Positions 1 to 14,509 of a stretch of DNA of 14,509 bases are shown in pieces. The stretch is from a virus (Duplodnaviria > Heunggongvirae > Uroviricota > Caudoviricetes): IMG/VR virus record IMGVR_UViG_2778261353_000006; one strand, given 5' to 3'. The notes below the pieces were generated by a model. The model made no database searches. It was not told the origin of the DNA and saw only the letters and a list, made by a program, of their open reading frames with translations. The first letter of the stretch is position 1. Every line of letters begins with the position of its first letter. The translations under genes and the position numbers were made by a program.

Positions 1-276
1 GTCGTCTATGAGAAGTCCGGCATGCGTCAGCGCATCCAGTGGTGCTTTCAGGATATTGTCCAGGTCACGACGACGTTTATCCGGTGGCTCTGCAATAATC
101 TTTATCGCCAGCCGTCCGGACAGGTTTAATTTCAGTCGCTGCTGGCGAACAATAAGCGCCACATCACGGCGATAACGCTCACCGGCTTTTGATACAAAAT
201 ATGTGCTGCCACGACGTCGCCAGTAAGTGTTCACCGTTGGCGGGTAAGGCAAAACAAATTCTATGCGTTCAGTCAT
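1..276 (-). CDS. rusA: Holliday-junction resolvase RusA family, N-terminal 92 codons; C-terminus lies beyond window start
   Basis: ATG at 276-274 overlaps the TGA of the upstream DUF968 gene (ATGA). My reverse-complement translation MTERIEFVLPYPPTVNTYWRRRGS...IIAEPPDKRRRDLDNILKAPLDALTHAGLLIDD carries the RusA-type acidic motif (D-x-RRRDLDN...D) and stays open to position 1. Absent from the track because it is truncated. Confidence 0.7.
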   Translation of the reverse strand, partial: MTERIEFVLPYPPTVNTYWRRRGSTYFVSKAGERYRRDVALIVRQQRLKLNLSGRLAIKIIAEPPDKRRRDLDNILKAPLDALTHAGLLIDD

Positions 277-1332
277 TCATGCTTTCCACTTCAGGACACC
301 CGAATTTCTCGCGTGCATTAAAAAACGAATCAGCAACAACAGCTGGCTGCCGTGTTTTTCTTCAAAATCTTTTACCCCGGCGTGTAGTTCGCTATGGCAT
401 TTACGGCACAGCGGAATAACAAACAAATCATCAGCCTTTGTTCCCATCCCTCCCAGTCCATGACCAATGATGTGATGCGGATCATCTGCCTGATTGCCAC
501 ACGTCATGCATTTCTGCGTTTTTACCCAGCGCGTGTATACGGGCATCTCTTCCCGTTGTGGTTTCTGGCGCTGGAGATACTGAGCCGGTGACTCCGGATC
601 AACGGCAATGCTTACCACCGTCTTTTCCTGTGGCGGGTTTTGCTGGTGGGCGTGAGGCAGCGGCGCAAGATTTTTTGTGCGCTGTTTCAGGATGCTGGTG
701 GCTGTCTGCTCTCCCGGTATGATGTCGCTTTCGCGGTACACCGAGCGGATTTTTTCCGCACGTAACCCCAGAGAACGACGTAATGCTGCCTCTGGTAGCG
801 CATCCGCCACCTGATTGCAGACCGCCCACCAGGATAATTCACCCAGCGATAATTCCCGCTCCTGCGTGCCATTCATTGCGTGGCGGATGACATCAATCAT
901 CCATGCTGACAGGTTTTGATGAGCAAGTTGCTCGAGTGATTCGGATGTCTGGTCACGCAGCTGGTTGTCGCAGTGCCAGCACAACACCATTGCGCCGGTA
1001 CCATAACGATGTATGACGGTTTCGCTGTGATGATAATCGCCGTGTGGCCACTGGCAGGATTTAATATGGCGCAACAGCCAGTCAGACAATGCACCAGCAC
1101 CACCAGCAGCACGAATTACCCGTGCGTTACTGAAAAACGGCAGCAATGTTTTGTCTTCCACCAGCGGCTGGCGAACGGCAGGAACGACCCCGGACGGCAG
1201 ATTACGCATGCTTTTCGGTTCCGGCTCCACCAGAACTCGAGGGTTATGAAATACCTGCATGGATTCACGACCCGGTTTTAGCACCACCAGCCCAAGTTCC
1301 GGTACCGGAACCGGTCGAAGCAATACCCGCAC
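277..1332 (-). CDS. ydfU: DUF968-family protein (YdfU-like) with C-terminal Cys/His HNH-like zinc motif
   Basis: C-terminal CMTCGNQADDPHHIIGHGLGGMGTKADDLFVIPLCRKCHSELH. The first codon of the track ORF is GTG (1332-1330) with GGAGG 4-5 nt upstream; the next in-frame ATG at 1260 has no clear SD. Family and symbol are from recalled motif and position next to rem/hok. Confidence 0.7.
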   Translation of the reverse strand: MRVLLRPVPVPELGLVVLKPGRESMQVFHNPRVLVEPEPKSMRNLPSGVVPAVRQPLVEDKTLLPFFSNARVIRAAGGAGALSDWLLRHIKSCQWPHGDYHHSETVIHRYGTGAMVLCWHCDNQLRDQTSESLEQLAHQNLSAWMIDVIRHAMNGTQERELSLGELSWWAVCNQVADALPEAALRRSLGLRAEKIRSVYRESDIIPGEQTATSILKQRTKNLAPLPHAHQQNPPQEKTVVSIAVDPESPAQYLQRQKPQREEMPVYTRWVKTQKCMTCGNQADDPHHIIGHGLGGMGTKADDLFVIPLCRKCHSELHAGVKDFEEKHGSQLLLLIRFLMHARNSGVLKWKA

Positions 1333-1333
1333 G

Positions 1334-1612
1334 TTACCTCCAGATGCGTTGCTGGAATGTGCGGGACGGACGCGGTGGGCGTTCGGAATAAGGGAGTCTG
1401 ACGTAGATTATCCAGTGACGATAATCGAGGCTGAGGGCTTTCCTAAACTCATACCCACGTCTGCGGTAGTTATGAATCAGCCATTCGGCCTGTTCTTCAG
1501 TGCATGGGTCATGCTGGTACCAGTCTGACTTGAATGCGTGAGAATACCGCTCGTGCGTGCGGGCAAGAACGGTCGAATTATCATGATTGTAACATTTTGC
1601 GTTGCGTGCCAT
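1334..1612 (-). CDS. hypothetical protein (92 aa)
   Basis: ATG at 1612 with GGAGAA 6 nt upstream; TAA at 1336-1334 sits inside the SD of the next gene. Protein-like N-terminal two thirds; no family recognised. Confidence 0.55.
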   Translation of the reverse strand: MARNAKCYNHDNSTVLARTHERYSHAFKSDWYQHDPCTEEQAEWLIHNYRRRGYEFRKALSLDYRHWIIYVRLPYSERPPRPSRTFQQRIWR

Positions 1613-1678
1613 CGGTTTTCTCCGGTGGCACGGTGTTACTCAGCGGGAGTTCAGCCCCGCGCAAGATTGTAGATGAGT

Positions 1679-1930
1679 TTATTCTTCTGAAAAAGCAGAA
1701 AAGCCAGCTTTTATTCCGATCTCTTTCAATGCCAGTAATGAAGTGACAAACTCACCTTCGCGCAAGATAAATCCGTCTGTCACTCGAGCATCCACAAAAT
1801 TAATTAACGCAGCCCCATTCTTTCGCAAACACTTAATGCGGTAATGGCTAACAATATTTCCATTTTCAACGCACACAGCATAGAGTCCATCGTCACAAAA
1901 AATTTTATGCACTTCTTCGATGTTCATCAT
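1679..1930 (-). CDS. rem: Rem-like small prophage protein (83 aa)
   Basis: ATG-ATG at 1930/1927 with GGAAGGA SD upstream. Symbol assigned by size (83 aa) and position between ydfU-like and hok, as in K-12 Qin; not checked by alignment. Confidence 0.55.
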   Translation of the reverse strand: MMNIEEVHKIFCDDGLYAVCVENGNIVSHYRIKCLRKNGAALINFVDARVTDGFILREGEFVTSLLALKEIGIKAGFSAFSEE

Positions 1931-2047
1931 CAGAATCCTTCCGGATAATTAGCTCTCCCCTTCAGGGGGCCATCCCTCTTATCCCTGCGCGCTACTTAAG
2001 TGTTTTGGATTCTATATCCGATGTCTTAAAAAAGTTAAAACGCATTG

Positions 2048-2088
2048 AAAATAAAAACAAAAAACCGCCGAAGCAGGTTAAGTGCGGG
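2048..2088 (-). terminator. hok mRNA 3' end: GC stem followed by long U-run
   Basis: Minus strand reads ...CCCGCACTTAACCTGCTTCGGCGG then TTTTTTGTTTTTATTTT. The stem is imperfect, the T-run is strong. Confidence 0.45.
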
Positions 2089-2147
2089 TGCGTTGAGGAT
2101 GCCTGACACATCAGAGGTGGCGAGGGATTTCTCCCTCGCCTGGTCTC

Positions 2148-2303: not shown

Positions 2304-2359
2304 AGCCTGCTTCTCCTTGACCTTTCGGTCCGTAAGAGGCTAATCTCTATGTGTCGCAT
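2300..2359 (-). CDS. mok-like upstream ORF (19 codons) whose TGA overlaps the hok ATG
   Basis: ATG at 2359 with GAGG SD about 9 nt upstream; translation MRHIEISLLRTERSRRSRL; ends ATGA on the hok start, the arrangement used for mok-dependent hok translation. Confidence 0.35.
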   Translation of the reverse strand: MRHIEISLLRTERSRRSRL

Positions 2360-2420
2360 AGATATGGCCTCAGATTAATGTTAAACGTCTTGCAGGACGC
2401 GTAATGTTAACTGGGGCTTT
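2350..2420 (+). ncRNA. Sok-like antisense RNA (approximate extent) with promoter just upstream
   Basis: Plus-strand -35 TTGACC (2317-2322), 18-nt spacer, -10 TAATCT (2341-2346). The transcript would be antisense to the mok-like SD/start region. The 3' end is not defined. Confidence 0.3.
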
Positions 2421-2477
2421 TCTCTATCTACCTTTGGTGTTCATGCCCGAGGCAGATAGCCTCAAGCACCCGCAGCA

Positions 2478-2505
2478 ATTCTACTTAACTCTCGCTTTAC
2501 AGCAA
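2478..2505 (-). promoter_or_regulatory. hok mRNA promoter (-35 TTGCTG, 16-nt spacer, -10 TAGAAT)
   Basis: Minus-strand reading; the predicted 5' leader begins near 2470 with GCTTGAGGCTATCTGCCTC, resembling the hok-family tac 5' element and nearly complementary to CCTCAACGCACC downstream of the hok stop (fbi-like). Confidence 0.4.
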
Positions 2506-2540
2506 ACCGTTTTTGCCCAATATGGGAATAATTCAGTAGG

Positions 2541-3092
2541 TTAAAGCTCCATCAATTTTCCAGCCAGTTCATCCCGCGGAATTACCAGCCATCCGCGCGA
2601 TTTAAGCAAAGCCAAGGCTTCTTCAACCGTCACCAGCTGACCAGGTGCATAACTTCGGATGAAGGCGGTTTTATCATCACGGATCGCCAGATGAAAATCG
2701 ATATTCATTTTGCCCATAGCACGCTCTTTCTCGTACTGGTTGAAGTAGTTATCTTCCAGTTTTTCGAACACTTCCCATGCCTGATCGGTTTCGAGCATTT
2801 TTGCGTGGCGGGCTGCACCGCGTTCTGTCCAGAGGATGAGGGAGCGGGCTTTCGGGGAAATTTTCACCTCATTTTGCGACTCGTTTAAAACTAGTCGCAA
2901 ATTTTTGAGCTCATCACCAACAGCTTTAAAGAAGTGTTTTCCCTCAATAAATCGAGATTTATTTTCATGGTGATTCTGCTGTATACGGATTGCTTCTGTT
3001 CCGTAAAGGCGGGCGAGTAACTCAGTTGTGATTACAGGAATCTGGTTATAAGTGACAGGGGAAAGGTTTTTGACAGTAACTTGAACAGTCAT
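2541..3092 (-). CDS. ORF6N/KilA-N-like DNA-binding protein (possible antirepressor)
   Basis: ATG at 3092 with GTGAGGT SD 5 nt upstream. N-terminal region ...NQIPVITTELLARLYGTEAIRIQQNHHENKSRFIEGKHFF...WTERGAARHAKMLETDQAW has the ORF6N-like pattern as I recall it. Confidence 0.75.
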   Translation of the reverse strand: MTVQVTVKNLSPVTYNQIPVITTELLARLYGTEAIRIQQNHHENKSRFIEGKHFFKAVGDELKNLRLVLNESQNEVKISPKARSLILWTERGAARHAKMLETDQAWEVFEKLEDNYFNQYEKERAMGKMNIDFHLAIRDDKTAFIRSYAPGQLVTVEEALALLKSRGWLVIPRDELAGKLMEL

Positions 3093-3255
3093 AACGACCT
3101 CACGTTTCGATAATTTTCACCTCACCACCTTCAGGTTCCAATCATCGGGTGGCGAACTGTGCAGGGTTGGAACTACCGGTCGAAACATCCGGCGCACCTT
3201 TCGGTGCCCCCACACAGCCCGCCATAAATCGCGAATGTGACTGTGCTTAGCGCAT

Positions 3256-3275
3256 AAAAAAACCGCCAGCGCGGT
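3256..3275 (-). terminator. Rho-independent terminator
   Basis: Minus strand: ACCGC-GCTG-GCGGT stem-loop followed by TTTTTTT, downstream of the DUF551 and 27-aa genes. Confidence 0.55.
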
Positions 3276-3361
3276 ATGCACCGTTTCGATATCCGGGGTT
3301 CCAATCCCGACGCCAGATTTTGCTGGCGCGTCGGAAATATAGCCCCGGATTAGTAATTACG

Positions 3362-3445
3362 TCAACCCCAGCGGCAAATCGAATACACCACCAGCGCCAC
3401 CGCCATCGCAATTCCTACCGTGGTGAATGCCTCAGGCCAGGTCAT
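3362..3445 (-). CDS. small hydrophobic peptide (27 aa), translationally coupled to the DUF551 gene
   Basis: ATG at 3445-3443 overlaps the DUF551 stop TGA 3444-3442 (ATGA). Translation MTWPEAFTTVGIAMAVALVVYSICRWG, one predicted TM segment. Too short for the track. Confidence 0.35.
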   Translation of the reverse strand: MTWPEAFTTVGIAMAVALVVYSICRWG

Positions 3446-4065
3446 TGATTCACCTCCTGCGGTGGTTCCGGTAGCGGCATCCAGTGAGTTGAGCTCTCTA
3501 CTTCGACGCCGTCTTTGTCCACAAAAGCCATCTTATTCCCGCCACGAGTGGGGCAAAAAACCTTATCCCAGGAACCGGGGAATACATTCCCGAGATCATC
3601 GAGAAGAATCACATCGCAATATTCAGCAGGAACTGCATCACTACAGCTTATCCAGCCAGCCGGAGTTCCCGGAGAGCTGGTTGACGTTTCCGAGATTTCC
3701 CGAAAATTGTTGGTTGACGAATTCTTACTTTCCCGAAAGTTTTCGGCCTGAAGCATGGCGACACGGCAAGCGTTCCAGCCATCAGTATATGTTTCAGTTA
3801 CACCGTCGAGATGGCAGGTAAGCAAATCCATTTCATCAGGCACTACCATCGCTGGCGGCGCTGCGTAAAGCGGTGTTATTTCTGCCCGAAAATCACCTAC
3901 TTTATGCAGTCGCACCCACCGTTCGATTTCTGCTTTGTCAGAATTCATAAGGGTGAACGTATTACATTCATGGTTAATTTGCGTGAAGGTTGCCTTCCAC
4001 GCCACCGGCTCTGCTTCCAGTGATGCCAGTGCAATTTTGAATAACTCGCCCTCTACCTGCGCCAT
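3442..4065 (-). CDS. DUF551 domain protein
   Basis: ATG at 4065; C-terminus ...GWISCSDAVPAEY...THWMPLPEPP is the DUF551 hallmark as I recall it. Confidence 0.75.
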   Translation of the reverse strand: MAQVEGELFKIALASLEAEPVAWKATFTQINHECNTFTLMNSDKAEIERWVRLHKVGDFRAEITPLYAAPPAMVVPDEMDLLTCHLDGVTETYTDGWNACRVAMLQAENFRESKNSSTNNFREISETSTSSPGTPAGWISCSDAVPAEYCDVILLDDLGNVFPGSWDKVFCPTRGGNKMAFVDKDGVEVESSTHWMPLPEPPQEVNQ

Positions 4066-4277
4066 CCCTGAATTTGGGTGGCATTTCGCAATCGCTATTT
4101 TTTAATTTGGCTTCTTCGATTAATTACTCTTTGGTTAATTCAGTCATTTTTCATTACCGCCCTTTCAGGCGGCCTCCTGATGTTTTGAGGGTGCAGAAAT
4201 CCCTCCGGTTAAGGATTTAATAAAAACCACTTCTGATTTAAATTTTCAGTGTTTTGTTATCAGATGGTTTATCACCT

Positions 4278-4469
4278 TTATGCTTCAGTCTTATTTCTCA
4301 GCCATACACAAACAGGACCATCTTCAGTGTCATGAATGGAACCAATGAACCAGCCTTCACCTTCCGGGCGCTCCGGTTTCCAAGAGGCAATATCGGGACC
4401 ATCTGCGTCCAGATTAAAATCATCTTCATCCATAGTTCTGATGGTCCATTGAAGATTATTTTCCTCCAT
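4278..4469 (-). CDS. hypothetical acidic protein (63 aa)
   Basis: ATG at 4469; MEENNLQWTIRTMDEDDFNLDADGPDIASWKPERPEGEGWFIGSIHDTEDGPVCVWLRNKTEA. More protein-like than the overlapping 86-aa frame. Confidence 0.5.
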   Translation of the reverse strand: MEENNLQWTIRTMDEDDFNLDADGPDIASWKPERPEGEGWFIGSIHDTEDGPVCVWLRNKTEA

Positions 4470-4580
4470 CCATGCGTTAAACTCTTCCGTTGAAATATGT
4501 TCTCTACCATCACAGAATTTTTCATATTCAGGATGCGTCCAGCAGCCATATTCATCACGTACTACTGGTATTTCTCTATT

Positions 4581-4835
4581 TCATTCATTTCTGTTCTCCC
4601 ACGTTTGCAGACTTTCACCACAGAACGGACAAAATGAAACCCGCACTGGTAATTTAGAAAATTCACCGGAACGCAACATCACCAAATCAGGGTCGCGAGT
4701 TAAATTCTCATTCCAGATTTTGTATATCAGCAGACCTTTTCGCGTCGTGTATTCAGCATCATGCTCAAGGGCTTTTGCCAGTACCGCACATGGTTCTATC
4801 TGATTGCTATTAACCTGACATTTTGATTCGCTCAC
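4581..4835 (-). CDS. hypothetical protein (84 aa from GTG), C-terminal CPFC motif
   Basis: The track ORF begins at GTG 4904 inside the upstream gene. GTG at 4835 has AGGAGG 7 nt upstream and overlaps the upstream stop (GTGA), so it is the more plausible start. Confidence 0.5.
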   Translation of the reverse strand: MSESKCQVNSNQIEPCAVLAKALEHDAEYTTRKGLLIYKIWNENLTRDPDLVMLRSGEFSKLPVRVSFCPFCGESLQTWENRNE

Positions 4836-5290
4836 AGCATCACCTCCTGAAAATTCCCCTGATAAAACGCCAGTACGCGCTGCATAACTTCGCTCTTCCG
4901 GCACTCGCTACAGATTATGTTCTGACGCCTGTCGTAGCGGCGTATTTCTCCGTCTGGTAATGACCAGATAAGGTCCGGATCAACCACAGATGTTTTTTTC
5001 TTCAGCTTTGCCCTTGAGAGTTTTTTGCGGGCGTTTTGCCAGTCCTTACGCGCCTGTTCAGACGGGAATAACCCGTAACCAGAGTTGTACATATCGCCAC
5101 TGGCAACCAGCTCTCTGGCGAGAACGCTGATCAGATATCTTGTCGCACCTGTCTTGGATTCCAGTTGCCGTAACGTCTCGCGCCCACTCCGGCGTACCAG
5201 CTCAACAACCTGCCCTTTAATTTTTTCTCGCTCTTCTTGTGTGAATACTTTTGCCACAAGCCCTCCTGAAAAATCACCTTCACAATTCAT
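4832..5290 (-). CDS. hypothetical protein (152 aa)
   Basis: ATG at 5290 overlaps the P-like stop (ATGA coupling); no family recognised. Confidence 0.65.
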   Translation of the reverse strand: MNCEGDFSGGLVAKVFTQEEREKIKGQVVELVRRSGRETLRQLESKTGATRYLISVLARELVASGDMYNSGYGLFPSEQARKDWQNARKKLSRAKLKKKTSVVDPDLIWSLPDGEIRRYDRRQNIICSECRKSEVMQRVLAFYQGNFQEVML

Positions 5291-5952
5291 ACAAAACCAG
5301 CCGCTTTCCGGCGCTCATATTCCTGTTTCAGCAACTCAATTGGTGTTGGCCCCGACGGACGTTTTGGTGCCGCCAGTTGCCGCCGTACGGGCGGAACGCT
5401 GAGGCCGTTGCCAACATGCTTTGCCCATTTCGTCAGCTGTCGTTCTGCAAGCCGTTTTAACTCCCCTTCGGTCATCTGGCGCTCAATCCCCTGTGAACGC
5501 ATCTCGAGGCAAATGTGATACAGCACAGGTTGAGTCCACGGGTATTTATCGCTTCCGTCGTATCGCCAGGACTCATTGCGCCAGCGTCGGTACTCCTCCA
5601 TCACGGCATCCACCGTCAGACCGAATGGATTGGCCCCGCTTTCCGAAATCAGCGCCACAAACTCAGCCAGGTCCGGAGGCCATGTTTCACCCGCCCGGCA
5701 GCGGTCCATGCACTGGCGGCAGACCTGCCGGATTTGCTGCTCAGTCATCGCACCAATCTGTGCAATCCAGAGCTTCGAAGGTGCGGCCCCGTTCTTCTGG
5801 GTCCAGCGGTTCGAATAAACCTCCCCCATGAGTTCCCACAGCTTCCAGGCCGTTTCCGTCGCTGATAAATCCGTTTTCACGTTCCCACTGCTCACGTGCA
5901 GCCCGAATTTCCTGAACTGCCCGTGATGCGGTGCCACCTGGCGCTGCTGCAT
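5287..5952 (-). CDS. lambda P-like replication protein (helicase loader)
   Basis: ETWPPDLAEFVAL... and DKYPWTQPVLYHICLEMRSQGIERQMTEGELKRLAERQL parallel lambda P (PFLPSPGQFVAW..., ESYPWKSNAHYWLVTNLYQ...TDAELRRKAADEL) as recalled. ATG at 5952 has a GGGGGTGAG SD but overlaps the O-like gene by about 212 nt; alternative ATG at 5829. Confidence 0.7.
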   Translation of the reverse strand: MQQRQVAPHHGQFRKFGLHVSSGNVKTDLSATETAWKLWELMGEVYSNRWTQKNGAAPSKLWIAQIGAMTEQQIRQVCRQCMDRCRAGETWPPDLAEFVALISESGANPFGLTVDAVMEEYRRWRNESWRYDGSDKYPWTQPVLYHICLEMRSQGIERQMTEGELKRLAERQLTKWAKHVGNGLSVPPVRRQLAAPKRPSGPTPIELLKQEYERRKAAGFV

Positions 5953-6781
5953 CTCTCACCCCCTTGCTGACTGGTTTAACCTGTGCCCTGACGTGATTTA
6001 CGTGACGGGCGAATTTCTGCTCCCACTGAACCTGCGTGAACACTTTGCCCTCATCGCTCCAGTAATCCCGGAATGCGGCAAGTTCAGCAGGTGTAAATTC
6101 CGGCTCCGGCAGAGCCACTCCCCACAGAGCCGCCCGTCGTCGAAAATCCCGTGACGGATGCCAGCTATCGGTCATCGGAAATTTTCCGATGGGTTCGCTC
6201 AGGCCATCCAGGAATACGGGTGGCACTGCCTGTAACGACAAAACTTCCTGCTCACTGGTCGGAGCACTCTCGCGTGCGTTATGTGTGGGGTTTAGATCTT
6301 TGGGTTCCTTTGGGTTCCGTGATCCGTTTTTGGGTGTCTTTAATGGAAAATTTGGGTGTCTTTGGTTATTTTCCATACAGAAAAGAGTTCCGTTTCTGGG
6401 GCTGTTTTGTGCTGAAACATAACCGTTTTCGGTACTGTTTTTATTAACAGCACCAATTTTACCCACCTTTAAAGACTCCCGTTTTTGGGTGTATTCAGGC
6501 TCGGCAACACTTTCTTCTACACCGATAAGTCGGTACACTACGATTTGCTTTGTTCGGCCTTTTCTCTCACCGGTATCAACAATTAACCCAATCTCCATCA
6601 GGTGTCGTAAGCTGTCCTGCACAGTCTTTTTGTTCAGTTCCGTTACTTCTGCCAGTGCAGATACAGACGGGTATGCACACAAATCGGCACCGCACATATC
6701 AGCAAGCCAGGTCAATACTGACTTACTGGATGAACTGCCGGTTTTCACCTTTTTAGCCCATCGTAGTGCATCGATACTCAT
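5741..6781 (-). CDS. replication initiator (O-like): N-terminal winged-helix HTH plus C-terminal DnaT-like domain
   Basis: Likely start is ATG 6781 (MSIDALRWAKK..., AGGGG SD); the track start at 6856 adds an implausible 25-aa extension. HTH segment ...SVSALAEVTELNKKTVQDSLRHLMEIGLI...; C-terminal ...PMTDSWHPSRDF...FRDYWSDEGKVFTQVQWEQKFARHV. Confidence 0.7.
   Translation of the reverse strand: MSIDALRWAKKVKTGSSSSKSVLTWLADMCGADLCAYPSVSALAEVTELNKKTVQDSLRHLMEIGLIVDTGERKGRTKQIVVYRLIGVEESVAEPEYTQKRESLKVGKIGAVNKNSTENGYVSAQNSPRNGTLFCMENNQRHPNFPLKTPKNGSRNPKEPKDLNPTHNARESAPTSEQEVLSLQAVPPVFLDGLSEPIGKFPMTDSWHPSRDFRRRAALWGVALPEPEFTPAELAAFRDYWSDEGKVFTQVQWEQKFARHVNHVRAQVKPVSKGVRDAAAPGGTASRAVQEIRAAREQWERENGFISDGNGLEAVGTHGGGLFEPLDPEERGRTFEALDCTDWCDD
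6296..6366. repeat. iteron-like direct repeats (candidate origin) inside the O-like gene
   Basis: TTTGGGTTCC tandem pair (6298-6307, 6308-6317); TTTTTGGGTGTCTTT (6326-6340); TTTGGGTGTCTT (6350-6361); another copy TTTTTGGGTGTATT at 6482-6495; AT-rich stretch about 6437-6475 between them. Confidence 0.5.
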
Positions 6782-7528: not shown

Positions 7529-7542
7529 TTGAGTTTTCTCAA
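7529..7542. promoter_or_regulatory. palindromic operator TTGAGttttCTCAA in the dicC-dicA divergent promoter region
   Basis: Perfect 5-4-5 palindrome between the divergent genes; the same motif recurs at 8063-8076. Confidence 0.45.
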
Positions 7543-7592: not shown

Positions 7593-8000
7593 ATGAACGA
7601 GAAAACTTTAGGTCAACGAATTAGAGAAAGACGCAAACAGGTTGGTTTAAGTCAAAACGATTTAAGCAAAGCCGCTGGCGTATCTGGCTCATCAATTTCA
7701 CTATGGGAAAGCGACCATACAGCCCCGCGTGGGCAAAATTTGCATCGCCTGGCTGAGGTATTGCAATGTTCACCAACTTGGATACTGTTTGGTGACGAGG
7801 ATAAAACACCAGATCCACCAGTTGCACTCAACAGCGCCTTAGACTTATCGGAAGATGAGTTGGAGATGTTGCGATTGTATCGCGCACTTCCAAAATCAGA
7901 GCAGCAAGCACAAATCAGCGAACTCCGTGCCCGCGTTGAGAATTTTAATCGCCTATTCACCGAGCTACTAGAAGCTCGCAAACGTAACAAACATCAGTAA
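7593..8000 (+). CDS. dicA: DicA-like immunity repressor (XRE HTH, 135 aa)
   Basis: ATG at 7593; N-terminal HTH (LSQNDLSKAAGVSGSSISLWE); the LQCSPTWILFGDEDK motif and 135-aa length match E. coli DicA as recalled. Confidence 0.85.
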   Translation: MNEKTLGQRIRERRKQVGLSQNDLSKAAGVSGSSISLWESDHTAPRGQNLHRLAEVLQCSPTWILFGDEDKTPDPPVALNSALDLSEDELEMLRLYRALPKSEQQAQISELRARVENFNRLFTELLEARKRNKHQ

Positions 8001-8017
8001 CCCCCTTCACAAATTTT

Positions 8018-8052: not shown

Positions 8053-8062
8053 CATTAAATAT

Positions 8063-8113
8063 TGAGTTTTCTCATTAAAAACGCTTGACCAACATTCATG
8101 AGAAAACTAAATT
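8063..8113 (+). promoter_or_regulatory. promoter of the ydfABC-dicF-dicB operon flanked by operator half-sites
   Basis: -35 TTGACC (8085-8090), 17-nt spacer, -10 TAAATT (8108-8113); TTGAGTTTTCTCAT (8063-8076) upstream and inverted CATGAGAAAACTAA (8097-8110) within the spacer. Confidence 0.5.
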
Positions 8114-8189
8114 ACCACCCATCAAGACACCGCACGGTGTTCTCAGCAAACAGTTCCGCTACCCGGCGTTAAGGGGAAATGAGGTCAAC

Positions 8190-8345
8190 ATGGATACTAT
8201 CGATCTTGGTAACAACGAATCTCTGGTGTACGGCGTGTTTCCCAACCAGGACGGCACGTTCACCGCGATGACGTATACCAAAAGCAAAACGTTTAAAACC
8301 GAAAATGGTGCCCGTCGCTGGCTGGAAAGAAACTCAGGTGAGTGA
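8190..8345 (+). CDS. ydfA: YdfA-like small protein (51 aa)
   Basis: ATG at 8190 with GAGGT SD; MDTIDLGNNESLVYGVFPNQDGTFTAMTYTKSKTFKTENGARRWLERNSGE. The track start at 8085 is a TTG lying in the promoter -35. Confidence 0.8.
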   Translation: MDTIDLGNNESLVYGVFPNQDGTFTAMTYTKSKTFKTENGARRWLERNSGE

Positions 8346-8346
8346 T

Positions 8347-8475
8347 ATGGATTTCAACACAATCATGGAAAAGGCTTACGAAGAATACTTCGAAGGCCTT
8401 GCCGAAGGCGAAGAAGCCCTCAGCTTCAGCGAATTTAAACAGGCGCTTTCCAGTTCGGCAAAATCTAACGGCTGA
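8347..8475 (+). CDS. ydfB: YdfB-like small acidic protein (42 aa)
   Basis: ATG at 8347, AGGTGAG SD 6 nt upstream; MDFNTIMEKAYEEYFEGLAEGEEALSFSEFKQALSSSAKSNG. Not in the track (too short). Confidence 0.7.
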   Translation: MDFNTIMEKAYEEYFEGLAEGEEALSFSEFKQALSSSAKSNG

Positions 8476-8504
8476 TAAGCGAAGCAGCACCGCGAGGAAT
8501 CAGT

Positions 8505-8723
8505 ATGCAGAAACGAGAACCCGTCATCATCGCGCCAGACTATACCGATGATGAACTTTATGAGTGGATGCACCAGAAAATTAAGGCTGCGCAGGATCTG
8601 AAATGGGCCAATGAAGCCAGGGCTAAGCAGGCTGAAAATCTGTCCGCTCTGGAGCAGGATATCACCAATCTGGAAAAAGCAGCGGCATTAAGCATTGCCA
8701 GAATGATTACATACCCACGTTAA
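8505..8723 (+). CDS. ydfC: YdfC-like protein (72 aa)
   Basis: ATG at 8505 with GAGGAA SD; size and position match ydfC of Qin. Confidence 0.8.
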   Translation: MQKREPVIIAPDYTDDELYEWMHQKIKAAQDLKWANEARAKQAENLSALEQDITNLEKAAALSIARMITYPR

Positions 8724-8745
8724 TGGTTAACCAACGAGGCTAATA

Positions 8746-9153
8746 ATGGAATTTAAAGATTTACCAAAAGAAATCCAGATAATTGCTGCAACGACACTCG
8801 GTGATAGTCTGGTGAAAATTGACCCGGCATACACCAAAAAAGAAACCATCGATAATATGATTCGTAATGTGCGCAATGCTTTTTCAGGGCTATATGGTTC
8901 TGATAATCAAAAACAGGAAAACGATATTGATGAACGGGTAATTTCTGTTTGCCTGAATGGTCATGTTATTTCAGCAATCAGAACAGAAACGGCAACTGTT
9001 TTTGATTATCTCTGCATGATTCAGAGTCTTGCTGATGTTCTGTTGAAATCAAAAGATTTAGAAAACGATGCAAATTTACAGGGGCGCACAATAGCACATC
9101 CATATGCACATACTTTAGGCTCTGTGGATATCAAAGATCCCACAAATCTTTAA
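8746..9153 (+). CDS. hypothetical protein (135 aa), AT-rich cargo gene
   Basis: ATG at 8746, GAGG SD, 22 nt after the ydfC stop. Visibly lower GC than its neighbours; no family recognised. Confidence 0.7.
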   Translation: MEFKDLPKEIQIIAATTLGDSLVKIDPAYTKKETIDNMIRNVRNAFSGLYGSDNQKQENDIDERVISVCLNGHVISAIRTETATVFDYLCMIQSLADVLLKSKDLENDANLQGRTIAHPYAHTLGSVDIKDPTNL

Positions 9154-9364
9154 TGAAATAGTTAACGCAAATTGTACTTGCTCTTTCAGTTGCTTTCAGA
9201 ATACGCGTTGAAACTGCTGGCGGTAATTTAGTATTCCATTTATTAAAATCATGCCCGGGAAAGTACTCTTCGAAAATACTTTTAACTGCAGACTCGCCTA
9301 TTGAAATGCTGCTTACCATGCGATTTTGATAAAGGCATTTAGCAATAAGAGTTGATTTTAACAT
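9131..9364 (-). CDS. hypothetical protein (77 aa), convergent with the 135-aa gene
   Basis: ATG at 9364 with AAGGGTGA upstream; AT-rich; 3' end overlaps the 135-aa gene by 23 nt on the opposite strand. Confidence 0.5.
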   Translation of the reverse strand: MLKSTLIAKCLYQNRMVSSISIGESAVKSIFEEYFPGHDFNKWNTKLPPAVSTRILKATERASTICVNYFIKDLWDL

Positions 9365-9687
9365 TCACCCTTCTGAGGGTTGGTAATTAAGGAGTTCTCC
9401 ACGGGTGAGGTGGAGTGCGTGCGCCGGACACGGGTGAGCATCCGGCACTGACAGTTTACTGAAAGGATATATCCCTGAAAAGTCAGGGCATAACACGAAA
9501 GCGTACGGCGAAGGCCTTCACCTATGAGGCTTGTCGTTAAATTTAATTCGACCGTACGCTTCCGGTTGTGGCAATCCGCGAAATGGAGCGGCGGTAAGTA
9601 TGGCAGGGGTACTATTCTCCCTCCCCTGTGGAGCACCGGGTTGTCAGGTTGACCATACGCTTAAGTGACAACCCCGCTGCAACAACC

Positions 9688-9750
9688 CATGTTGATTACC
9701 TTTTGGCGGGTATCCGTTTTTTGTTTTCCCTTGTGATACCCGCCCTTTTT
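9688..9750 (+). ncRNA. dicF: DicF-like sRNA (5' end approximate) ending in an intrinsic terminator
   Basis: Perfect 10-bp stem GGCGGGTATC (9705-9714) / GATACCCGCC (9735-9744) followed by TTTTT (9746-9750). The ...UUUGGCGGGUAUC... core and the location about 185 nt upstream of dicB match DicF of Qin as recalled; the 5' part differs from K-12 DicF. Confidence 0.5.
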
Positions 9751-9756
9751 AAAGTG

Positions 9757-9914
9757 AATTTTGTGATGCGGTGAATGCGGCTCAGCGCACGCGGAACAGT
9801 TAAAAAGGCCAGTTGACTTCCGTATTGGTTCTTATGGGTGGGTTCTCTGTATCCGGCGTTAATTGTTAACTGGTTAACGTCACCTGGAGGCACCAGGCAC
9901 CGCATCACAAAATT
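9757..9914. repeat. 17-bp perfect long-range inverted repeat enclosing about 124 nt between DicF and dicB
   Basis: AATTTTGTGATGCGGTG (9757-9773) and its exact reverse complement CACCGCATCACAAAATT (9898-9914); internal GTTAAC-based palindromes; the dicB SD lies just 3' of the distal arm. Confidence 0.7.
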
Positions 9915-9933
9915 CATTGTTGAGGACGCGATA

Positions 9934-10122
9934 ATGGAAACGTTATTACCAAACGTTAATACGTCTGAAGGTTGCTTTGAAATTGGTGTCAAAATCAGTA
10001 ACCCAGTATTTACTGAAGATGCCATTAATAAGAGAAAACACGAACGGGAGCTATTAAATCAAATATGCATTGTTTCAATGCTGGCCCGTTTACGTCTGAT
10101 GCAAAAAGGATGCTGGCAGTGA
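9934..10122 (+). CDS. dicB: cell-division inhibitor DicB (62 aa)
   Basis: ATG at 9934 with GAGGA SD 7 nt upstream; METLLPNVNTSEGCFEIGVKISNPVFTEDAINKRKHERELLNQICIVSMLARLRLMQKGCWQ matches DicB as recalled. The track start at 9838 is a spurious extension. Confidence 0.85.
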   Translation: METLLPNVNTSEGCFEIGVKISNPVFTEDAINKRKHERELLNQICIVSMLARLRLMQKGCWQ

Positions 10123-10322
10123 ATACAGCATTTGCACTCGCTCTGACAGTTTATCTTAATACTGGCGAGCCTGTTAATCTGGTTATTGACATTTACGGTT
10201 CAATGAAAGAATGCACGGCTGCCGCAGCGGAACAGAAAATTCCCGGCAACTGTTATCCGGTCGATAAAGTTATTCACATGGATAATAACGAAATCCCGGC
10301 AGGACTTAAAACAGCGCCGTAA
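10119..10322 (+). CDS. ydfD: YdfD-like small protein with N-terminal hydrophobic segment
   Basis: GTG at 10119 overlaps the dicB stop (GTGA) with AAGGA 8 nt upstream; alternative ATG at 10110. NTAFALALTVYL... hydrophobic start then ...EQKIPGNCYPVDKVIHMDNNEIPAGL. Confidence 0.6.
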   Translation: MNTAFALALTVYLNTGEPVNLVIDIYGSMKECTAAAAEQKIPGNCYPVDKVIHMDNNEIPAGLKTAP

Positions 10323-10401
10323 TTAATATCCGGTTTCATTTTATATGCCAGCAATGGCAGGGATTTGTTCACCCTTAAATCTGTAATGAGGTTAAAACAA
10401 C

Positions 10402-12873
10402 ATGAGTAAAGTCTTTATTTGCGCCGCTATTCCGGACGAACAGGCAATAAAGGAAGAAGGTGCAGTCGCTGTAGCCACTGCCATTGAAGCTGGCGACGAA
10501 CGCCGCGCCCGTGCCAAATTTACCTGGCAATTCCTGGAGCAATATCCGGCTGCTCAGGACTGCGCTTATAAATTTCTTGTTTGCGAGGATAAACCCGGTA
10601 TACCCCGCCCTGCCCTCGATTCCTGGGATGCTGAATATATGCAGGAAAACCGCTGGGATGAGGAGTCAGCTTCCTTTGTCCCGGTTGAGACTGAATCAGA
10701 TCCGATGAACGTCACTTTTGACAACCTAGCCCCTGAAGTACAGAACGCTGTCATGGTTAAGTTCGACACATGTGAAAACATCACTGTTGATATGGTGATT
10801 AGCGCACAGGAATTGTTGCAGGAAGACATGGCAACATTCGACGGCCATATCGTTGAAGCGTTGATGAAAATGCCAGAAGTTAACGCTATGTATCCGGAGC
10901 TTAAGCTGCATGCCATCGGGTGGGTTAAGCATAAATGTAAGCCTGGTGCCAAATGGCCCGAAATTCAGGCAGAGATGCGCATCTGGAAAAAACGTCGCGA
11001 AGGTGAACGCAAGGAAGCCGGAAAATACACGTCTGTTGTTGATCTCGCCCGCGCCAGAGCCAATCAACAGCACACTGAAAATTCAACAGGAAAAATCAAC
11101 CCGGTCATTGCTGCCATTCATCGCGAATACAAGCAGACATGGAAAACACTGGATGACGAACTGGCCTACGCTCTCTGGCCTGGTGATGTGGATGCCGGAA
11201 ACATTGACGGCAGCATCCATCGCTGGGCAAAAAATGAAGTTATCGACAACGACCGCGAAGACTGGAAGCGTATCTCGGCATCAATGCGCAAACAGCCTGA
11301 TGCCCTTCGCTACGACCGCCAGACTATTTTTGGCCTTGTCCGTGAACGTCCGATCGACATTCACAAAGACCCTGTGGCACTGAACAAATACATTACTGAA
11401 TACCTGACTACAAAGGGCGTGTTTGAAGATGAAGGAACAAATCAGAGCGCAACTGATACTCTCTCGTCGCCAGTACCAGAAACTGATGCAGTGGAAACGG
11501 CAATTCCGGACAACGAAAAAACCGAATGCAAAGTGGAAGTCGAACCATCTGTAGAACGTGAGGGGCCGTTCTACTTCCTCTTCACCGACAAGGATGGCGA
11601 AAAATACGGTCGCGCAAACAAACTTTCTGGTCTGGATAAGGCGCTGTCTGCCGGGGCTACTGAAATCACGAAAGAAGAATATTTCGCCCGCAAAAACGGT
11701 ACATACTCAGGTTCACAACAAAATACTGGTGCATCTGACACGACCGCACAACCAGGGTCAGTAAAAGTTACCGCTGACGAAGTAAACAACATTATGCAGG
11801 CAGCCAATATCAGCCAGCCTGACGCCGATGAACTGCTTGCAGTATCACGTGGTGAATTTGTTGAAGGGATTAGCGACCCGAATGATCCGAAATGGGTGAA
11901 GGGAATTGAAACCCGCGATTCTGTGAACCAGAACCAGCAAGAAACGGAACAGAACGGCCAGAAAGCGGATCAAAACAGCCCAAATACGCAACAAAACGAG
12001 CCAGAAACGAAACAATCCGAACCAGTAGCGCAACAGGAACCGGAAAAGATCTGCACCGCCTGCGGTCAGACCGGCGGCGGCAACTGCCCTGATTGTGGCG
12101 CGATGATGGGCGACGCAACATACCAGGAAACGTTCGATGACGAGAATCAGGTCGAAGTTCAGGAAGACAATTCGGAGAAAATGGAAGGCGCTGAACATCC
12201 ACACAAGGAGAATGCTGGCAGCGCTCAGGACCACGCCAGCGATAGTGAAACTGGCGAGACGGCAGATCCCTTAATTGCGGTGAACAGTCATCACATTATC
12301 ACATCCACCAGCAGAGTGTGGACTCACCTGTCGGTCGACCTTGAAACGATGGGAACAAATCCTGATGCACCAATCAACTCTATTGGCGGTAAATTCTTTG
12401 ACCCGACAACCGGAGAGATGGGGCCGGAATTCAGCAAAGCTATCGATCTGGAAACATCTGGCGGAATCATCGACCGGAAAACAATAAAGTGGTGGGCGAA
12501 GCGATCACGCGAAGCGCAATCTGCCATTTTTACCGATGAAATCCCGTTAGATGACGCTCTACTGCAATTACGGGAATTTATCAACGAAAACTCCGGCGAA
12601 AGCTTTGTCCAGATCTGGGGAAATGGAGCCAACTTCGACAATGTGATTTTACGCCGTTCATATGAACGGCAGGGGATCCCCTGCCCGTGGCGTTACTACA
12701 ACGATCGCGATGTGCGCACAATTGTTGAACTGGGAAATTCCATTGGCTTTGATGTCAGAATGGCTATTCCATTCGAAGGTGTACCCCACAATGCACTTGA
12801 TGATGCACGTCACCAGGCAAAACAAGTTTCAGCAATCTGGCAAAAACTGATCCCAAGTCAGGCTGATTTTTAA
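10402..12873 (+). CDS. exodeoxyribonuclease VIII-like / YdfE-family protein (823 aa) with Cys4 zinc ribbon and C-terminal DEDDh (DnaQ-like) 3'-5' exonuclease domain
   Basis: ATG at 10402, GAGGT SD. C-terminal motifs VDLETMG (Exo I), GANFDNVIL (Exo II), HNALDDARHQ (Exo III). CTACGQTGGGNCPDCG zinc ribbon and Q/E/N-rich linkers in the middle. Occupies the exo/recE slot upstream of xis-int. Confidence 0.85.
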   Translation: MSKVFICAAIPDEQAIKEEGAVAVATAIEAGDERRARAKFTWQFLEQYPAAQDCAYKFLVCEDKPGIPRPALDSWDAEYMQENRWDEESASFVPVETESDPMNVTFDNLAPEVQNAVMVKFDTCENITVDMVISAQELLQEDMATFDGHIVEALMKMPEVNAMYPELKLHAIGWVKHKCKPGAKWPEIQAEMRIWKKRREGERKEAGKYTSVVDLARARANQQHTENSTGKINPVIAAIHREYKQTWKTLDDELAYALWPGDVDAGNIDGSIHRWAKNEVIDNDREDWKRISASMRKQPDALRYDRQTIFGLVRERPIDIHKDPVALNKYITEYLTTKGVFEDEGTNQSATDTLSSPVPETDAVETAIPDNEKTECKVEVEPSVEREGPFYFLFTDKDGEKYGRANKLSGLDKALSAGATEITKEEYFARKNGTYSGSQQNTGASDTTAQPGSVKVTADEVNNIMQAANISQPDADELLAVSRGEFVEGISDPNDPKWVKGIETRDSVNQNQQETEQNGQKADQNSPNTQQNEPETKQSEPVAQQEPEKICTACGQTGGGNCPDCGAMMGDATYQETFDDENQVEVQEDNSEKMEGAEHPHKENAGSAQDHASDSETGETADPLIAVNSHHIITSTSRVWTHLSVDLETMGTNPDAPINSIGGKFFDPTTGEMGPEFSKAIDLETSGGIIDRKTIKWWAKRSREAQSAIFTDEIPLDDALLQLREFINENSGESFVQIWGNGANFDNVILRRSYERQGIPCPWRYYNDRDVRTIVELGNSIGFDVRMAIPFEGVPHNALDDARHQAKQVSAIWQKLIPSQADF

Positions 12874-12884
12874 TGTTCAACCAT

Positions 12885-12916
12885 CGCCGGTTGTGACTGG
12901 TATTCTGCAACCGGCG
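12885..12916 (+). other. 9-bp stem / 14-nt loop hairpin between the exonuclease gene and xis
   Basis: CGCCGGTTG (12885-12893) / CAACCGGCG (12908-12916); no downstream T-run, so not a canonical terminator. Confidence 0.3.
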
Positions 12917-12942
12917 CTCATCTGAAGTAAGAGATAAAAGCA

Positions 12943-13194
12943 ATGAGCGAAGTAATCATGATTGTCTCTCCCGGTAAATGGGTATCCGAAGAACAGCTAA
13001 TTGCACTGAAAGGAATAAAAAAGGGAACGCTAAAAAAAGCCAGGGAAAAATCGTTTATGGAAGGAAGGGAGTATAAGCATGTCGCCCATGACTGTATGCC
13101 ATGGGATAACAGCCCATGCTTTTACAACCTGGAAGAAATTGACCGCTGGATTGAGCGCCAGGCATCGGCAAGACCAAGACGTCATCTTACCTGA
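12943..13194 (+). CDS. xis: excisionase-like protein (83 aa)
   Basis: ATG at 12943, immediately upstream of int; the ...WVSEEQLIALKGIKKGTLKKAREKSFMEGREYKHV...CFYNLEEIDRWIE pattern resembles prophage excisionase-like proteins as I recall them. Confidence 0.7.
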   Translation: MSEVIMIVSPGKWVSEEQLIALKGIKKGTLKKAREKSFMEGREYKHVAHDCMPWDNSPCFYNLEEIDRWIERQASARPRRHLT

Positions 13195-13228
13195 CCAAAA
13201 GTAACACTAACCAACGAGAGAAGCTGAA

Positions 13229-14509
13229 ATGAAATATCCGACAGGCGTGGAAAACCATGGAGGGAAATTACGTATCTGGTTTGTTTATAAAGGTGTAAGA
13301 ATCAGGGAAAATCTTGGGGTTCCTGACACGGCAAAAAACAGGCGCATTGCAGGTGAGCTGCGCGCCTCTGTTTGTTACGCAATAAAAACTGGTGTTTTCG
13401 ACTATGCAAAACAGTTTCCCTCCTCACACAATCTGGAAAAATTTGGTGAGGCCCGACAAGATTTAACCATAAAGGAACTGGCTGAAAAATTTCTGGCACT
13501 GAAAGAAACGGAAGTCGCAAAAACGTCACTCAACACGTACCGTGCCGTCATCAAAAATATTCTGAGCATAATCGGTGAAAAAAATCTTGCATCGTCGATT
13601 AATAAAGAAAAATTGCTGGCGGTACGTAAAGAGTTACTTACTGGATACCAGATCCCCAAAAGTAATTATATTGTTACGCAACCGGGGAGATCGGCTGTCA
13701 CCGTAAATAATTACATGACAAATCTTTACGCCGTGTTCCAGTTTGGTGTTGATAACGGTTACCTGGCAGATAATCCGTTTAAGGGGATCTCGCCATTAAA
13801 GGAATCAAGAACCATTCCTGATCCTCTTTCACGGGAGGAATTTATCCGTCTTATCGACGCCTGCAGAAATCAGCAGGCCAAAAATTTATGGTGTGTTTCT
13901 GTTTATACTGGCGTTCGCCCTGGTGAGCTGTGTGCACTTGGGTGGGAGGACATAGATCTGAAAAATGGAACAATGATGATCAGGAGAAATTTAGCAAAAG
14001 ATCGTTTTACGGTACCGAAAACACAGGCTGGTACCAATCGGGTAATTCACCTTATCAAGCCTGCAATCGACGCTCTCAGGAGTCAGATGACACTAACGAG
14101 GCTGAGCAAAGAACATATTATTGACGTTCACCTCAGAGAGTTTGGCAGAACGGAAAAACAAAAATGCACATTTGTTTTTCAACCTGAAGTGTCAGCGAGA
14201 GTAAAAAATTATGGTGACCATTTCACCGTTGACTCAATAAGGCAGATGTGGGACGCAGCGATAAAGCGCGCTGGCCTCCGCCACCGCAAATCATATCAGT
14301 CGAGACATACTTATGCCTGCTGGTCGCTGACAGCCGGTGCCAACCCGGCATTCATAGCAAACCAGATGGGACATGCAGATGCGCAAATGGTGTTTCAGGT
14401 ATACGGGAAATGGATGTCTGAAAACAATAATGCACAGGTAGCCCTGTTAAATACACAGCTAAGCGAGTTTGCCCCAACCATGCCCCAAAACGAGGCGGCG
14501 CAAAATTAA
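13229..14509 (+). CDS. int: tyrosine site-specific integrase (426 aa)
   Basis: ATG at 13229; catalytic region ...LRHRKSYQSRHTYACWSLTAGANPAFIANQMGHADAQMVFQVYGKW (R, HxxR, H, Y). TAA is the last codon of the window, so attP/attL should lie just beyond. Confidence 0.9.
   Translation: MKYPTGVENHGGKLRIWFVYKGVRIRENLGVPDTAKNRRIAGELRASVCYAIKTGVFDYAKQFPSSHNLEKFGEARQDLTIKELAEKFLALKETEVAKTSLNTYRAVIKNILSIIGEKNLASSINKEKLLAVRKELLTGYQIPKSNYIVTQPGRSAVTVNNYMTNLYAVFQFGVDNGYLADNPFKGISPLKESRTIPDPLSREEFIRLIDACRNQQAKNLWCVSVYTGVRPGELCALGWEDIDLKNGTMMIRRNLAKDRFTVPKTQAGTNRVIHLIKPAIDALRSQMTLTRLSKEHIIDVHLREFGRTEKQKCTFVFQPEVSARVKNYGDHFTVDSIRQMWDAAIKRAGLRHRKSYQSRHTYACWSLTAGANPAFIANQMGHADAQMVFQVYGKWMSENNNAQVALLNTQLSEFAPTMPQNEAAQN

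Follow-up and report, generated by a model that had tools for sequence, protein, structure and literature searches.

An essentially intact relative of the K-12 Qin early arm at ydfJ in Escherichia coli, with a rare hairpin in the DicF slot

The early arm of the cryptic prophage Qin in Escherichia coli K-12 is decayed, and the question arises of what such an arm looks like when its genes are whole, and how it might be switched on. This question was raised by a stretch of 14,509 nucleotides from a virus of the Caudoviricetes (Duplodnaviria; Heunggongvirae; Uroviricota; IMG/VR record IMGVR_UViG_2778261353_000006), the whole of which is referred to here as the window. An original prediction, made from the sequence alone, had described it as an apparently intact, Qin-like prophage arm that may be inducible. 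The analysis presented below makes it very probable that a mosaic temperate phage is inserted in ydfJ, the site of cryptic Qin in K-12, and that the window is its early arm in full; the immunity, integration and exonuclease genes resemble those of Escherichia phage mEp460, the morphogenesis genes of the element resemble those of phages SfI and SfII, and the slot otherwise occupied by the small RNA (sRNA) DicF holds a rare hairpin.

Position and integrity of the early arm

The chromosomes of two E. coli strains, UTAK-3 and UTAK-18, were identical to the window across all 14,509 bases, and three more genomes matched it at 99.6-100%. At least 80% of the window was present in one place in 8 of 5426 complete genomes, and pieces of it in 5001. 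The UTAK-3 prophage, of which the window forms one end, is flanked by rspB and by a ydfJ truncated at its 5' end; this is the position of cryptic Qin in K-12. An 11-bp core, GAAATCCATAA, was found at both prophage junctions, in UTAK-3 and K-12 alike; in UTAK-3 the two copies were separated by 40,662 bp (a prophage of approximately 40.7 kb), with the nearer copy 38 nt past the end of the window, on the int side. Joining the outer flanks in silico opened the reading frame of the YdfJ N-terminus again, and 2009 of the 5426 genomes contained the rebuilt 311-nt empty site without interruption, the identity reaching 100%; the site was occupied or altered in 3365. The attachment (att) sites that the original prediction proposed to seek beyond the window were both located in this way, and with ydfJ next to rspB and an identical core repeat, the prophage belongs by its site to the Qin lineage.

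The window was compared with K-12 MG1655 by blastn, which produced six matching segments:

406-2317: K-12 ydfU-rem-hokD, 88% identity
7025-7425: K-12 ydfX-dicC, 89%
7758-7824: inside K-12 dicA, 78% over 67 nt
8120-8743: K-12 ydfABC, 96%
9378-11168: K-12 DicF precursor region, through dicB, ydfD and the 5' part of the exonuclease gene, to the IS2E boundary, 89%
13350-14509: K-12 intQ pseudogene, 94% (93.8% over 1160 nt)

These segments reflect an architecture common to both elements: besides the ydfJ/rspB site and its core, they share an integrase orthologous to intQ, divergent dicA and dicC genes, a ydfABC-dicB-ydfD operon and a ydfU-rem-hokD block. The two regions between segments where they differ most are instructive as to what K-12 lacks. 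Positions 2318-7024 had no K-12 counterpart; here K-12 carries relE, relB, ydfV, flxA and ydfW, while the window carries sok, a C4/IsrK/ant locus, a DUF551 gene, several small open reading frames (ORFs), P-like and O-like replication genes and most of a YdaT-like gene, of which K-12 YdfX represents the first 93 residues. Similarly, positions 11169-13349, comprising the rest of the exonuclease gene, xis and the 5' end of int, were absent from K-12, where IS2E stands instead. In the K-12 annotation ydfE, insD7 and intQ are pseudogenes around IS2E and xis is missing; ydfE corresponds to the first 255 residues of the exonuclease, the last 568 codons being gone. The claims that exonuclease and integrase are full length in the window and disrupted in K-12, and that a replication module takes the place of the K-12 relBE-ydfV-flxA segment, were both borne out. 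Further differences concern canonical DicF, present in K-12 and not in the window, and the late region, which in K-12 consists of the ydfT Q protein, essQ/rrrQ/rzpQ, nohA and stfQ/tfaQ, and which is of another type in the UTAK-3 prophage. K-12 Qin gave no match to the Rfam hok/sok model, and its alignment to the window ended at 2317. In K-12 relBE lies directly upstream of hokD, whereas the hokD of the window keeps its full hok/sok regulatory region. The comparison supports the view that the window holds, at the attachment site also used by Qin, an essentially intact relative of the decayed arm in K-12.

The gene layout was derived from the ORF listing, the PGAP annotation of the source, and Pfam and PHROG searches, all of which agreed:

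1-276, minus strand: rusA, 3' 276 nt of a gene of 366 nt that is whole in the genome and interrupted here by the window edge (PGAP RusA coding sequence (CDS), 16911-17276 of the UTAK-3 stretch; Pfam RusA on the full protein)
277-1332, minus: ydfU-like DUF968 protein, 351 aa (Pfam DUF968, E = 5.6e-63; 80% protein identity to full-length K-12 YdfU)
1334-1612, minus: small ORF, phrog_1212 (PHROG match; annotated in UTAK-3 and in strain JNE23-001)
1679-1930, minus: rem, 83 aa (92% identical to K-12 Rem)
2148-2303, minus: hokD toxin gene, 51 aa (Pfam HOK_GEF; 100% identical to K-12 HokD)
2301-2471, minus: hok/sok regulatory region (Rfam RF01794, 101.5 bits against a gathering score of 59)
2541-3092, minus: ORF6N antirepressor-family protein, 183 aa (Pfam ORF6N, E = 1.3e-20; phrog_2379 anti-repressor, 1-183 of 187, E = 8.6e-78)
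3442-4065, minus: open ORF of 207 codons with C-terminal DUF551 (Pfam)
4278-4589, minus: small ORF, phrog_1372, in which a 1-bp deletion near 4577 shifts the frame at codon 4
4581-4835, minus: small ORF, phrog_4030 (PGAP and PHROG)
4832-5257, minus: DUF977 protein (Pfam, E = 2.1e-31)
5287-5748, minus: lambda P-like helicase loader (Pfam Phage_lambda_P, E = 2.4e-16; PGAP 'replication protein P')
5741-6781, minus: O-like replication initiator with HTH_36 and DnaT domains (Pfam; phrog_1032 replication initiation protein, E = 1.8e-87)
6299-6495: candidate origin inside the initiator gene, with four to six iteron-like repeats ACCCAAAAACGG and an AT-rich spacer
6753-7304, minus: YdaT-family CII-like protein, 183 aa (Pfam YdaT_toxin; phrog_163 CII-like activator)
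7288-7515, minus: Cro/DicC-like regulator, 75 aa (Pfam P22_Cro)
7593-8000, plus: DicA-like repressor, 135 aa, helix-turn-helix (HTH) domain only (Pfam)
8190-8723, plus: ydfA, ydfB and ydfC (97-100% protein identity to K-12)
8744-9377: 634-bp insertion relative to K-12, with convergent ORFs at 8746-9153 (plus, 135 aa) and 9131-9364 (minus, 77 aa)
9934-10122, plus: dicB, 62 aa (90% identical to K-12 DicB)
10119-10322, plus: ydfD-like DUF1482 protein (Pfam)
10402-12873, plus: exonuclease, 823 aa, with a C-terminal Rv2179c-like 3'-5' exonuclease domain
12943-13194, plus: excisionase (xis), DUF1233 (Pfam, E = 1.8e-30)
13229-14509, plus: tyrosine integrase (int), 426 aa (Pfam arm-binding and catalytic domains)

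The gene order on both strands was as originally predicted, with the exception of dicF. Beyond the interrupted phrog_1372 ORF, which is considered with the late region, the matches of the remaining ORFs took in essentially the whole length of their Pfam or PHROG models. The replication module appears to be whole, in that genes for an initiator and a helicase loader are both present, along with the candidate iteron origin. The arm is contiguous and essentially intact, and is of a well-known mosaic lambdoid prophage kind.

A further point of reference was mEp460 (record LR597641), which a 2023 paper (PMC10448788) describes as a functional temperate phage with dicB, dicF, dicAC and rem; it is lambdoid. 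Its integrase was 97% identical to that of the window over 426/426 aa, its exonuclease 92% identical from end to end (823 aa), and its Rem 90% identical; these three proteins, the repressor and the Cro-like protein were each of identical length in the two. The gene order was shared also, running Q, rusA, ydfU, rem, hok, replication genes, YdaT-like, cro-like, repressor, dicB, ydfD, exonuclease, xis and int. The repressor showed 96% protein identity to the mEp460 repressor and 56% to K-12 DicA, and the Cro-like protein 95% to the mEp460 protein and 69% to K-12 DicC; because of these low identities to K-12, the immunity type is that of mEp460 and not that of Qin. The genes named dicA and dicC in the original prediction are therefore present as divergent homologues, but of another immunity type. 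The two phages are not the same throughout, however: the replication initiators were unrelated by BLASTP, mEp460 possesses canonical DicF, it has no annotated ORF6N gene and gave no C4/IsrK match in the stretch examined, and at the nucleotide level it covered only 61% of the window.

Several of the less familiar reading frames merit description. The DUF551 ORF was rendered by PGAP as a short gene plus a fragment; its 'partial' flag was rejected as evidence of a true truncation, given that the frame is open and that long phage homologues exist (122 phage records covered at least 80% of it). A 27-codon hydrophobic ORF, MTWPEAFTTVGIAMAVALVVYSICRWG, lay unannotated at 3362-3445 on the minus strand; it overlaps the DUF551 stop codon where it starts and, where it stops, the -35 hexamer of the isrK promoter described below. 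At the place of the 634-bp insertion (8744-9377), mEp460 carries an analogous pair of ORFs. NCBIfam gave no match to any of the ORFs of uncertain role (1334-1612, 4278-4571, 4581-4835, 8746-9153, 9131-9364, the DUF551 ORF and the 27-aa ORF), and PADLOC assigned none of them to a defence system, its sole weak match (PDC-S05) being to the ORF6N protein. Identification of the exonuclease with RecE (exodeoxyribonuclease VIII) was ruled out, since the NCBIfam equivalog scored 269.5 bits against a cut-off of 1269, with the resemblance confined to residues 245-626; no recT or bet partner was found near the gene.

Repression and antirepression

The original prediction had proposed a DicA-type repressor and an ORF6N antirepressor as the likely switch. 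By Pfam, the DicA-like repressor consisted of its HTH domain only, with no S24 peptidase domain, and derepression through an antirepressor is therefore a reasonable model. The prediction had overlooked Rem, however, which is the published antirepressor of DicA, having been shown by experiment to relieve DicA repression in Qin (PMC10448788), and which is present here at 92% identity to its K-12 counterpart. Operator-like sequences accompany the repressor gene:

7529-7541: operator-like 13-mer TTGAGTTTTCTCA, between the divergent repressor and cro-like genes
8062-8111: two inverted copies of the 13-mer (8062-8074 and 8099-8111), bracketing a promoter-like site (TTGACC-17-TAAATT) upstream of ydfA, equivalent to dicBp

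Antirepression by the ORF6N protein is of interest on account of the RNA elements that precede its gene, all on the minus strand:

3336-3365, minus: promoter-like TTGACG-18-TATATT, the best in the window (10/12 consensus matches), directly upstream of isrK
3256-3342, minus: IsrK-like sRNA, overlapping an a1/b1 target motif (RF01394, 72.1 bits against 50; RF03163, 47.4 against 46.7, which is marginal)
3275-3262, minus: terminator-like site of IsrK (intrinsic terminator)
3145-3229, minus: C4-type antisense RNA (RF01695, 75.2 bits against a gathering score of 45)
3093-3144, minus: leader of ant (the ORF6N gene), with second copies of the C4 target 10-mers GATTGGAACC and TATCGAAACG, ending at the ant Shine-Dalgarno sequence

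The loops of the C4 RNA carry GTTTCGA and GTTCCAA, with exact complementarity to these two 10-mers, both of which occur inside the IsrK region and again at 3144-3095, where the second copy ends beside a GAGG Shine-Dalgarno sequence. This organisation corresponds to the immI locus of P1 and P7 (c4-icd-ant) and to isrK-orf45-anrP of Gifsy-1, in that the C4, a1b1 and IsrK models all exceeded their Rfam gathering scores. As in P1, repeats complementary to the C4 loops lie upstream and at the ribosome binding site (RBS) of an antirepressor-family gene; as described for Gifsy-1 (PMC4825925), a promoter is followed by a terminated sRNA and a read-through layout. The differences are that the repressor is DicA-type and not P1 C1, that the antirepressor is a 183-aa ORF6N protein assigned by family membership, and that no equivalent of the icd/orf45 leader ORF was established in the window. 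A 54-codon ORF with a GTG start, at 3117-3281, stops 25 nt ahead of the ant ATG.

Taken as a model, these elements suggest the following sequence of events. The DicA-like repressor, predicted to be incapable of self-cleavage, would bind three 13-bp operators, one in the gap that separates the divergent repressor and cro-like genes and two around the promoter of the rightward operon. The leftward unit under its control would comprise the cro/dicC-like gene, the CII/YdaT-like gene, the O-like gene with its internal iterons and the P-like gene; the rightward unit would comprise ydfABC, the sRNA slot, dicB, ydfD, exonuclease, xis and int. Derepression would most likely proceed through an antirepressor, as Rem achieves for K-12 DicA, with the ORF6N protein as a second antirepressor-family member, translationally silenced by a P1-type C4 RNA whose loops would pair with the repeats beside its RBS. 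Int and Xis might then excise the 40.7-kb element across the 11-bp core and restore ydfJ. The integrity of the sequence, the homologies, the att junctions, the repeats and the matches to RNA families were observed directly; operator binding, the action of either antirepressor on this repressor, and induction itself are inferred from sequence. Some observations tell against the scheme. Three operator-like 13-mers were found where 0.54 were expected, but 5 of 200 shuffled sequences also reached three, which makes the enrichment modest. The repressor is only 56% identical to the DicA on which the action of Rem was demonstrated. Finally, no SOS box was present upstream of rem or ant.

This last result came from a search for LexA boxes (CTGT-N8-ACAG, at most one mismatch), which found none at 1931-2147 upstream of rem or at 3330-3420 upstream of ant. 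LexA control of either gene was rejected for want of a box at both promoters, which in this respect differ from the Gifsy-type SOS switch. A single perfect CTGT-N8-ACAG sequence, CTGTTTTTATTAACAG, did occur at 6435-6450, inside the initiator gene and in the AT-rich spacer between the iterons; approximately 0.2 such matches are expected by chance in a stretch of this length, and it is probably fortuitous or origin-related rather than a LexA site.

In the narrower proposition, as originally predicted, induction is triggered primarily by the ORF6N protein through its action on the DicA-type repressor; this was considered unlikely. The proposition draws on the full-length match of the protein to PHROG antirepressor families, on the lack of a self-cleavage domain in the repressor, and on the strong promoter-like site and elaborate RNA gate with which the gene itself is provided; furthermore, the homologous isrK-anrP locus of Gifsy-1 turns on phage late regulation (PMC4825925). 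Yet the antirepressor shown to act on DicA is Rem and not an ORF6N protein, and rem is present in the window. In mEp460, despite a repressor 96% identical, no such gene is annotated between hok and the replication genes, where there is a different, oppositely oriented ORF; nor did the ORF6N gene have a LexA box upstream. In P1, moreover, the C4-gated Ant serves superinfection immunity, not SOS induction. A role for the ORF6N protein in induction is a conjecture, and Rem is the antirepressor with a precedent.

The DicF slot

Between the ydfABC genes and dicB, where K-12 encodes DicF, the window contained:

9378-9700, plus: non-coding stretch equivalent to the DicF precursor, which aligns with K-12
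9701-9750, plus: DicF slot with a hairpin that is not DicF, followed by a T-run (allele B)

The original prediction had listed dicF among the genes present, but canonical DicF is absent. The Rfam model (RF00039) had no match in the window at its gathering score, nor at E of at most 1 in a 3.1-kb search, while the same model scored 76.7 bits on both K-12 and mEp460 as controls. When aligned with K-12, the flanks were nearly identical, and the 53 nt of DicF and about 15 nt before it had been replaced by TTTTGGCGGGTATCCGTTTTTTGTTTTCCCTTGTGATACCCGCCC and then a T-run, forming a 10-bp GC-rich stem with a 20-nt loop. Allele B shares with DicF its genomic slot, with the precursor before it and the flank after it both conserved, as well as a large-looped hairpin and the T-run; it lacks both the model match and either pairing region, the 3' part that serves ftsZ and the 5' part that serves xylR and pykA (PMC5069750) having both been replaced. 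No Rfam family matched it. A sub-threshold match to Rfam STnc100 (34 bits against a gathering score of 47) was recorded at 9743-9966 on the plus strand, from just past the slot into the start of dicB, and a second short patch unlike K-12 lay at 9806-9835, approximately 55 nt downstream of the slot.

Allele B occurred at 93 places in 92 of the 5426 genomes, nearly invariant, and was unannotated in every record listed; canonical DicF occurred at 6301 places in 3947 genomes. When viral contigs were searched in two pattern scans that took the conserved flanks as anchors, at least three families of slot allele emerged: canonical DicF, allele B with a sub-variant, and a third hairpin, GGCGGCATCAG...CTGATGTCCGCC. 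Hybrids were also seen, in which the 5' half of DicF was joined to another hairpin, and every allele folded as a hairpin followed by a T-run. Within the literature collection that was consulted, a search on natural dicF alleles turned up nothing relevant.

There are two ways to interpret this pattern. The reading judged somewhat the more probable is that the slot sequence is a mere intrinsic terminator or attenuator between ydfC and dicB, without function in trans, DicF having simply been lost; this was given slightly better than an even chance. It accords with the 10-bp GC-rich stem and T-run, and with the loss of both DicF pairing regions. It accords also with RNAduplex predictions for the ftsZ leader, where allele B reached -21.0 kcal/mol, which was weaker than its own shuffles, against -34.1 for canonical DicF; this test had low power, though, in that even canonical DicF was not significant against shuffles (p = 0.22). 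Equally, the only sequence complementary to the loop of allele B was its own antisense strand, in a scan of UTAK-3 stretch 1-31700 (the window, the late genes to the tape-measure gene, and 200 bp of host flank, with the baseplate and tail-fibre genes outside the scan). Set against the terminator reading are the conservation of the flanking precursor sequences, which are used for processing in K-12 (described in PMC10448788), the near-invariance of allele B across 92 genomes, and the existence of at least three allele families, with hybrids, between identical flanks, each retaining a large, sequence-specific loop.

Cassettes under selection for pairing could produce such a pattern of alleles. 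The second reading, put forward tentatively and with some doubt, is that the DicF position in dicB operons is an exchangeable sRNA cassette, and that allele B encodes a distinct RNA, processed in the same manner, Hfq-dependent and with host targets of its own, while DicB is retained. If this were true, strains with allele B would be natural variants that lack DicF and possess DicB.

The late region and the state of the element

The original prediction had also pointed to late and lysis genes elsewhere in the element as a check on its reading, and these were found upstream of the window in UTAK-3. A gene for a DUF1133 protein, which also matches the Q antiterminator family, is followed there by an ADP-ribosyltransferase gene and an AB5 B-subunit gene; further upstream are holins, an M15 peptidase, an HNH nuclease, a P27-type small terminase, a portal, an HK97-type head and a sheathed tail with baseplate. 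Over about 12 kb, the genes for packaging, head and tail were 97-98% identical to those of the serotype-converting Shigella myoviruses SfI, SfII and SfIV and of Escherichia phage vB_EcoM-689R6. The likeness lies outside the window, stops at about 12 kb and excludes the toxin and lysis region. The pertussis-like AB5 toxin genes (UTAK-3 stretch 14754-15972) stand approximately 1 kb beyond the left end of the window, between the Q-like gene and the holins, where stx lies in Stx phages; the A subunit gave a full-length match to PDB 4z9c ('Pertussis toxin-like subunit ArtA') at 537 bits.

Whether the element is complete was less clear for the UT strains, and several observations argue against intactness. 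Relative to the close relative JNE23-001, the window has the 1-bp deletion at about 4577 that shifts the frame at codon 4 of the ORF at 4278-4589, so that the prediction of every gene as full length failed at this one; the deletion is probably real, because the truncated phrog_1372 protein is common to UTAK-3, UTAK-18 and UTME-13, in which it is annotated alike. In the deposited UTAK-3 sequence, further 1-bp deletions affect the genes for the small terminase, the tail terminator and the holin. An early arm that is the same or almost the same is found in UTAK-18 and UTME-13, where 8.6 kb of head and tail genes have been lost; both ends of this deletion (at about 7223 in the UTAK-18 and UTME-13 stretches) lie in mid-gene, so that the capsid gene is fused to the DNA circularization gene. 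Since the window is equally identical to UTAK-3 and UTAK-18, it may come from either kind of element, and this particular copy may be defective.

Some of these frameshifts may have a simpler source. The chromosomal gene ynfE measured 2426 nt in UTAK-3, 2428 in UTME-13 and 2427 in UTAK-18, and because its length varies in this way, by one nucleotide either side, some single-base frameshifts in the UT assemblies are likely to be assembly errors. Given this noise, the late-gene frameshifts of UTAK-3 were rejected as proof of decay. The JNE23-001 copy, 99.6% identical, was complete and had no frameshifted gene. Its YmfQ-family CDS, the sole late gene flagged 'partial', is an open ORF of 319 codons, and that flag was likewise rejected as a sign of true truncation.

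It is accordingly a serious possibility, though one given rather less than an even chance, that the element of the source strain is a defective, vertically maintained prophage that forms no virions and persists for genes beneficial to the host (dicB, hok/sok and the toxin). Such a history would account for the deletion in UTAK-18, to which the window is 100% identical, and in UTME-13, for the three late-gene frameshift calls in UTAK-3, and for the codon-4 frameshift common to all three UT strains; the number of occupied or altered ydfJ sites (3365/5426) would fit long residence there. It is harder to reconcile with int, xis, exonuclease, immunity and replication genes that show no decay, and with the complete copy in JNE23-001, and the ynfE lengths point to random 1-bp errors, in which case the UTAK-3 frameshifts may be artefacts. 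The early arm itself, as distinct from the element behind it, is very probably complete.

The window has value as a reference, in that it reveals what the early arm of K-12 Qin has lost: xis, two-thirds of the exonuclease gene and the 5' end of int, together with the whole replication module, most of the CII-like gene and sok control of hokD. The same arm functions in a living phage lineage, as mEp460 demonstrates. According to an older idea, only defective prophages have kept the dicBF operon (PMC5069750); this had already been weakened by the discovery of mEp460 (PMC10448788). Inducibility is of some relevance to the spread of the toxin, because the element carries a pertussis-like toxin at the stx position. 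The alternative alleles of the DicF slot may be the only part of these observations that is new; they would provide a natural means of separating the functions of DicF from those of DicB, and may reveal how prophage small RNAs diversify.

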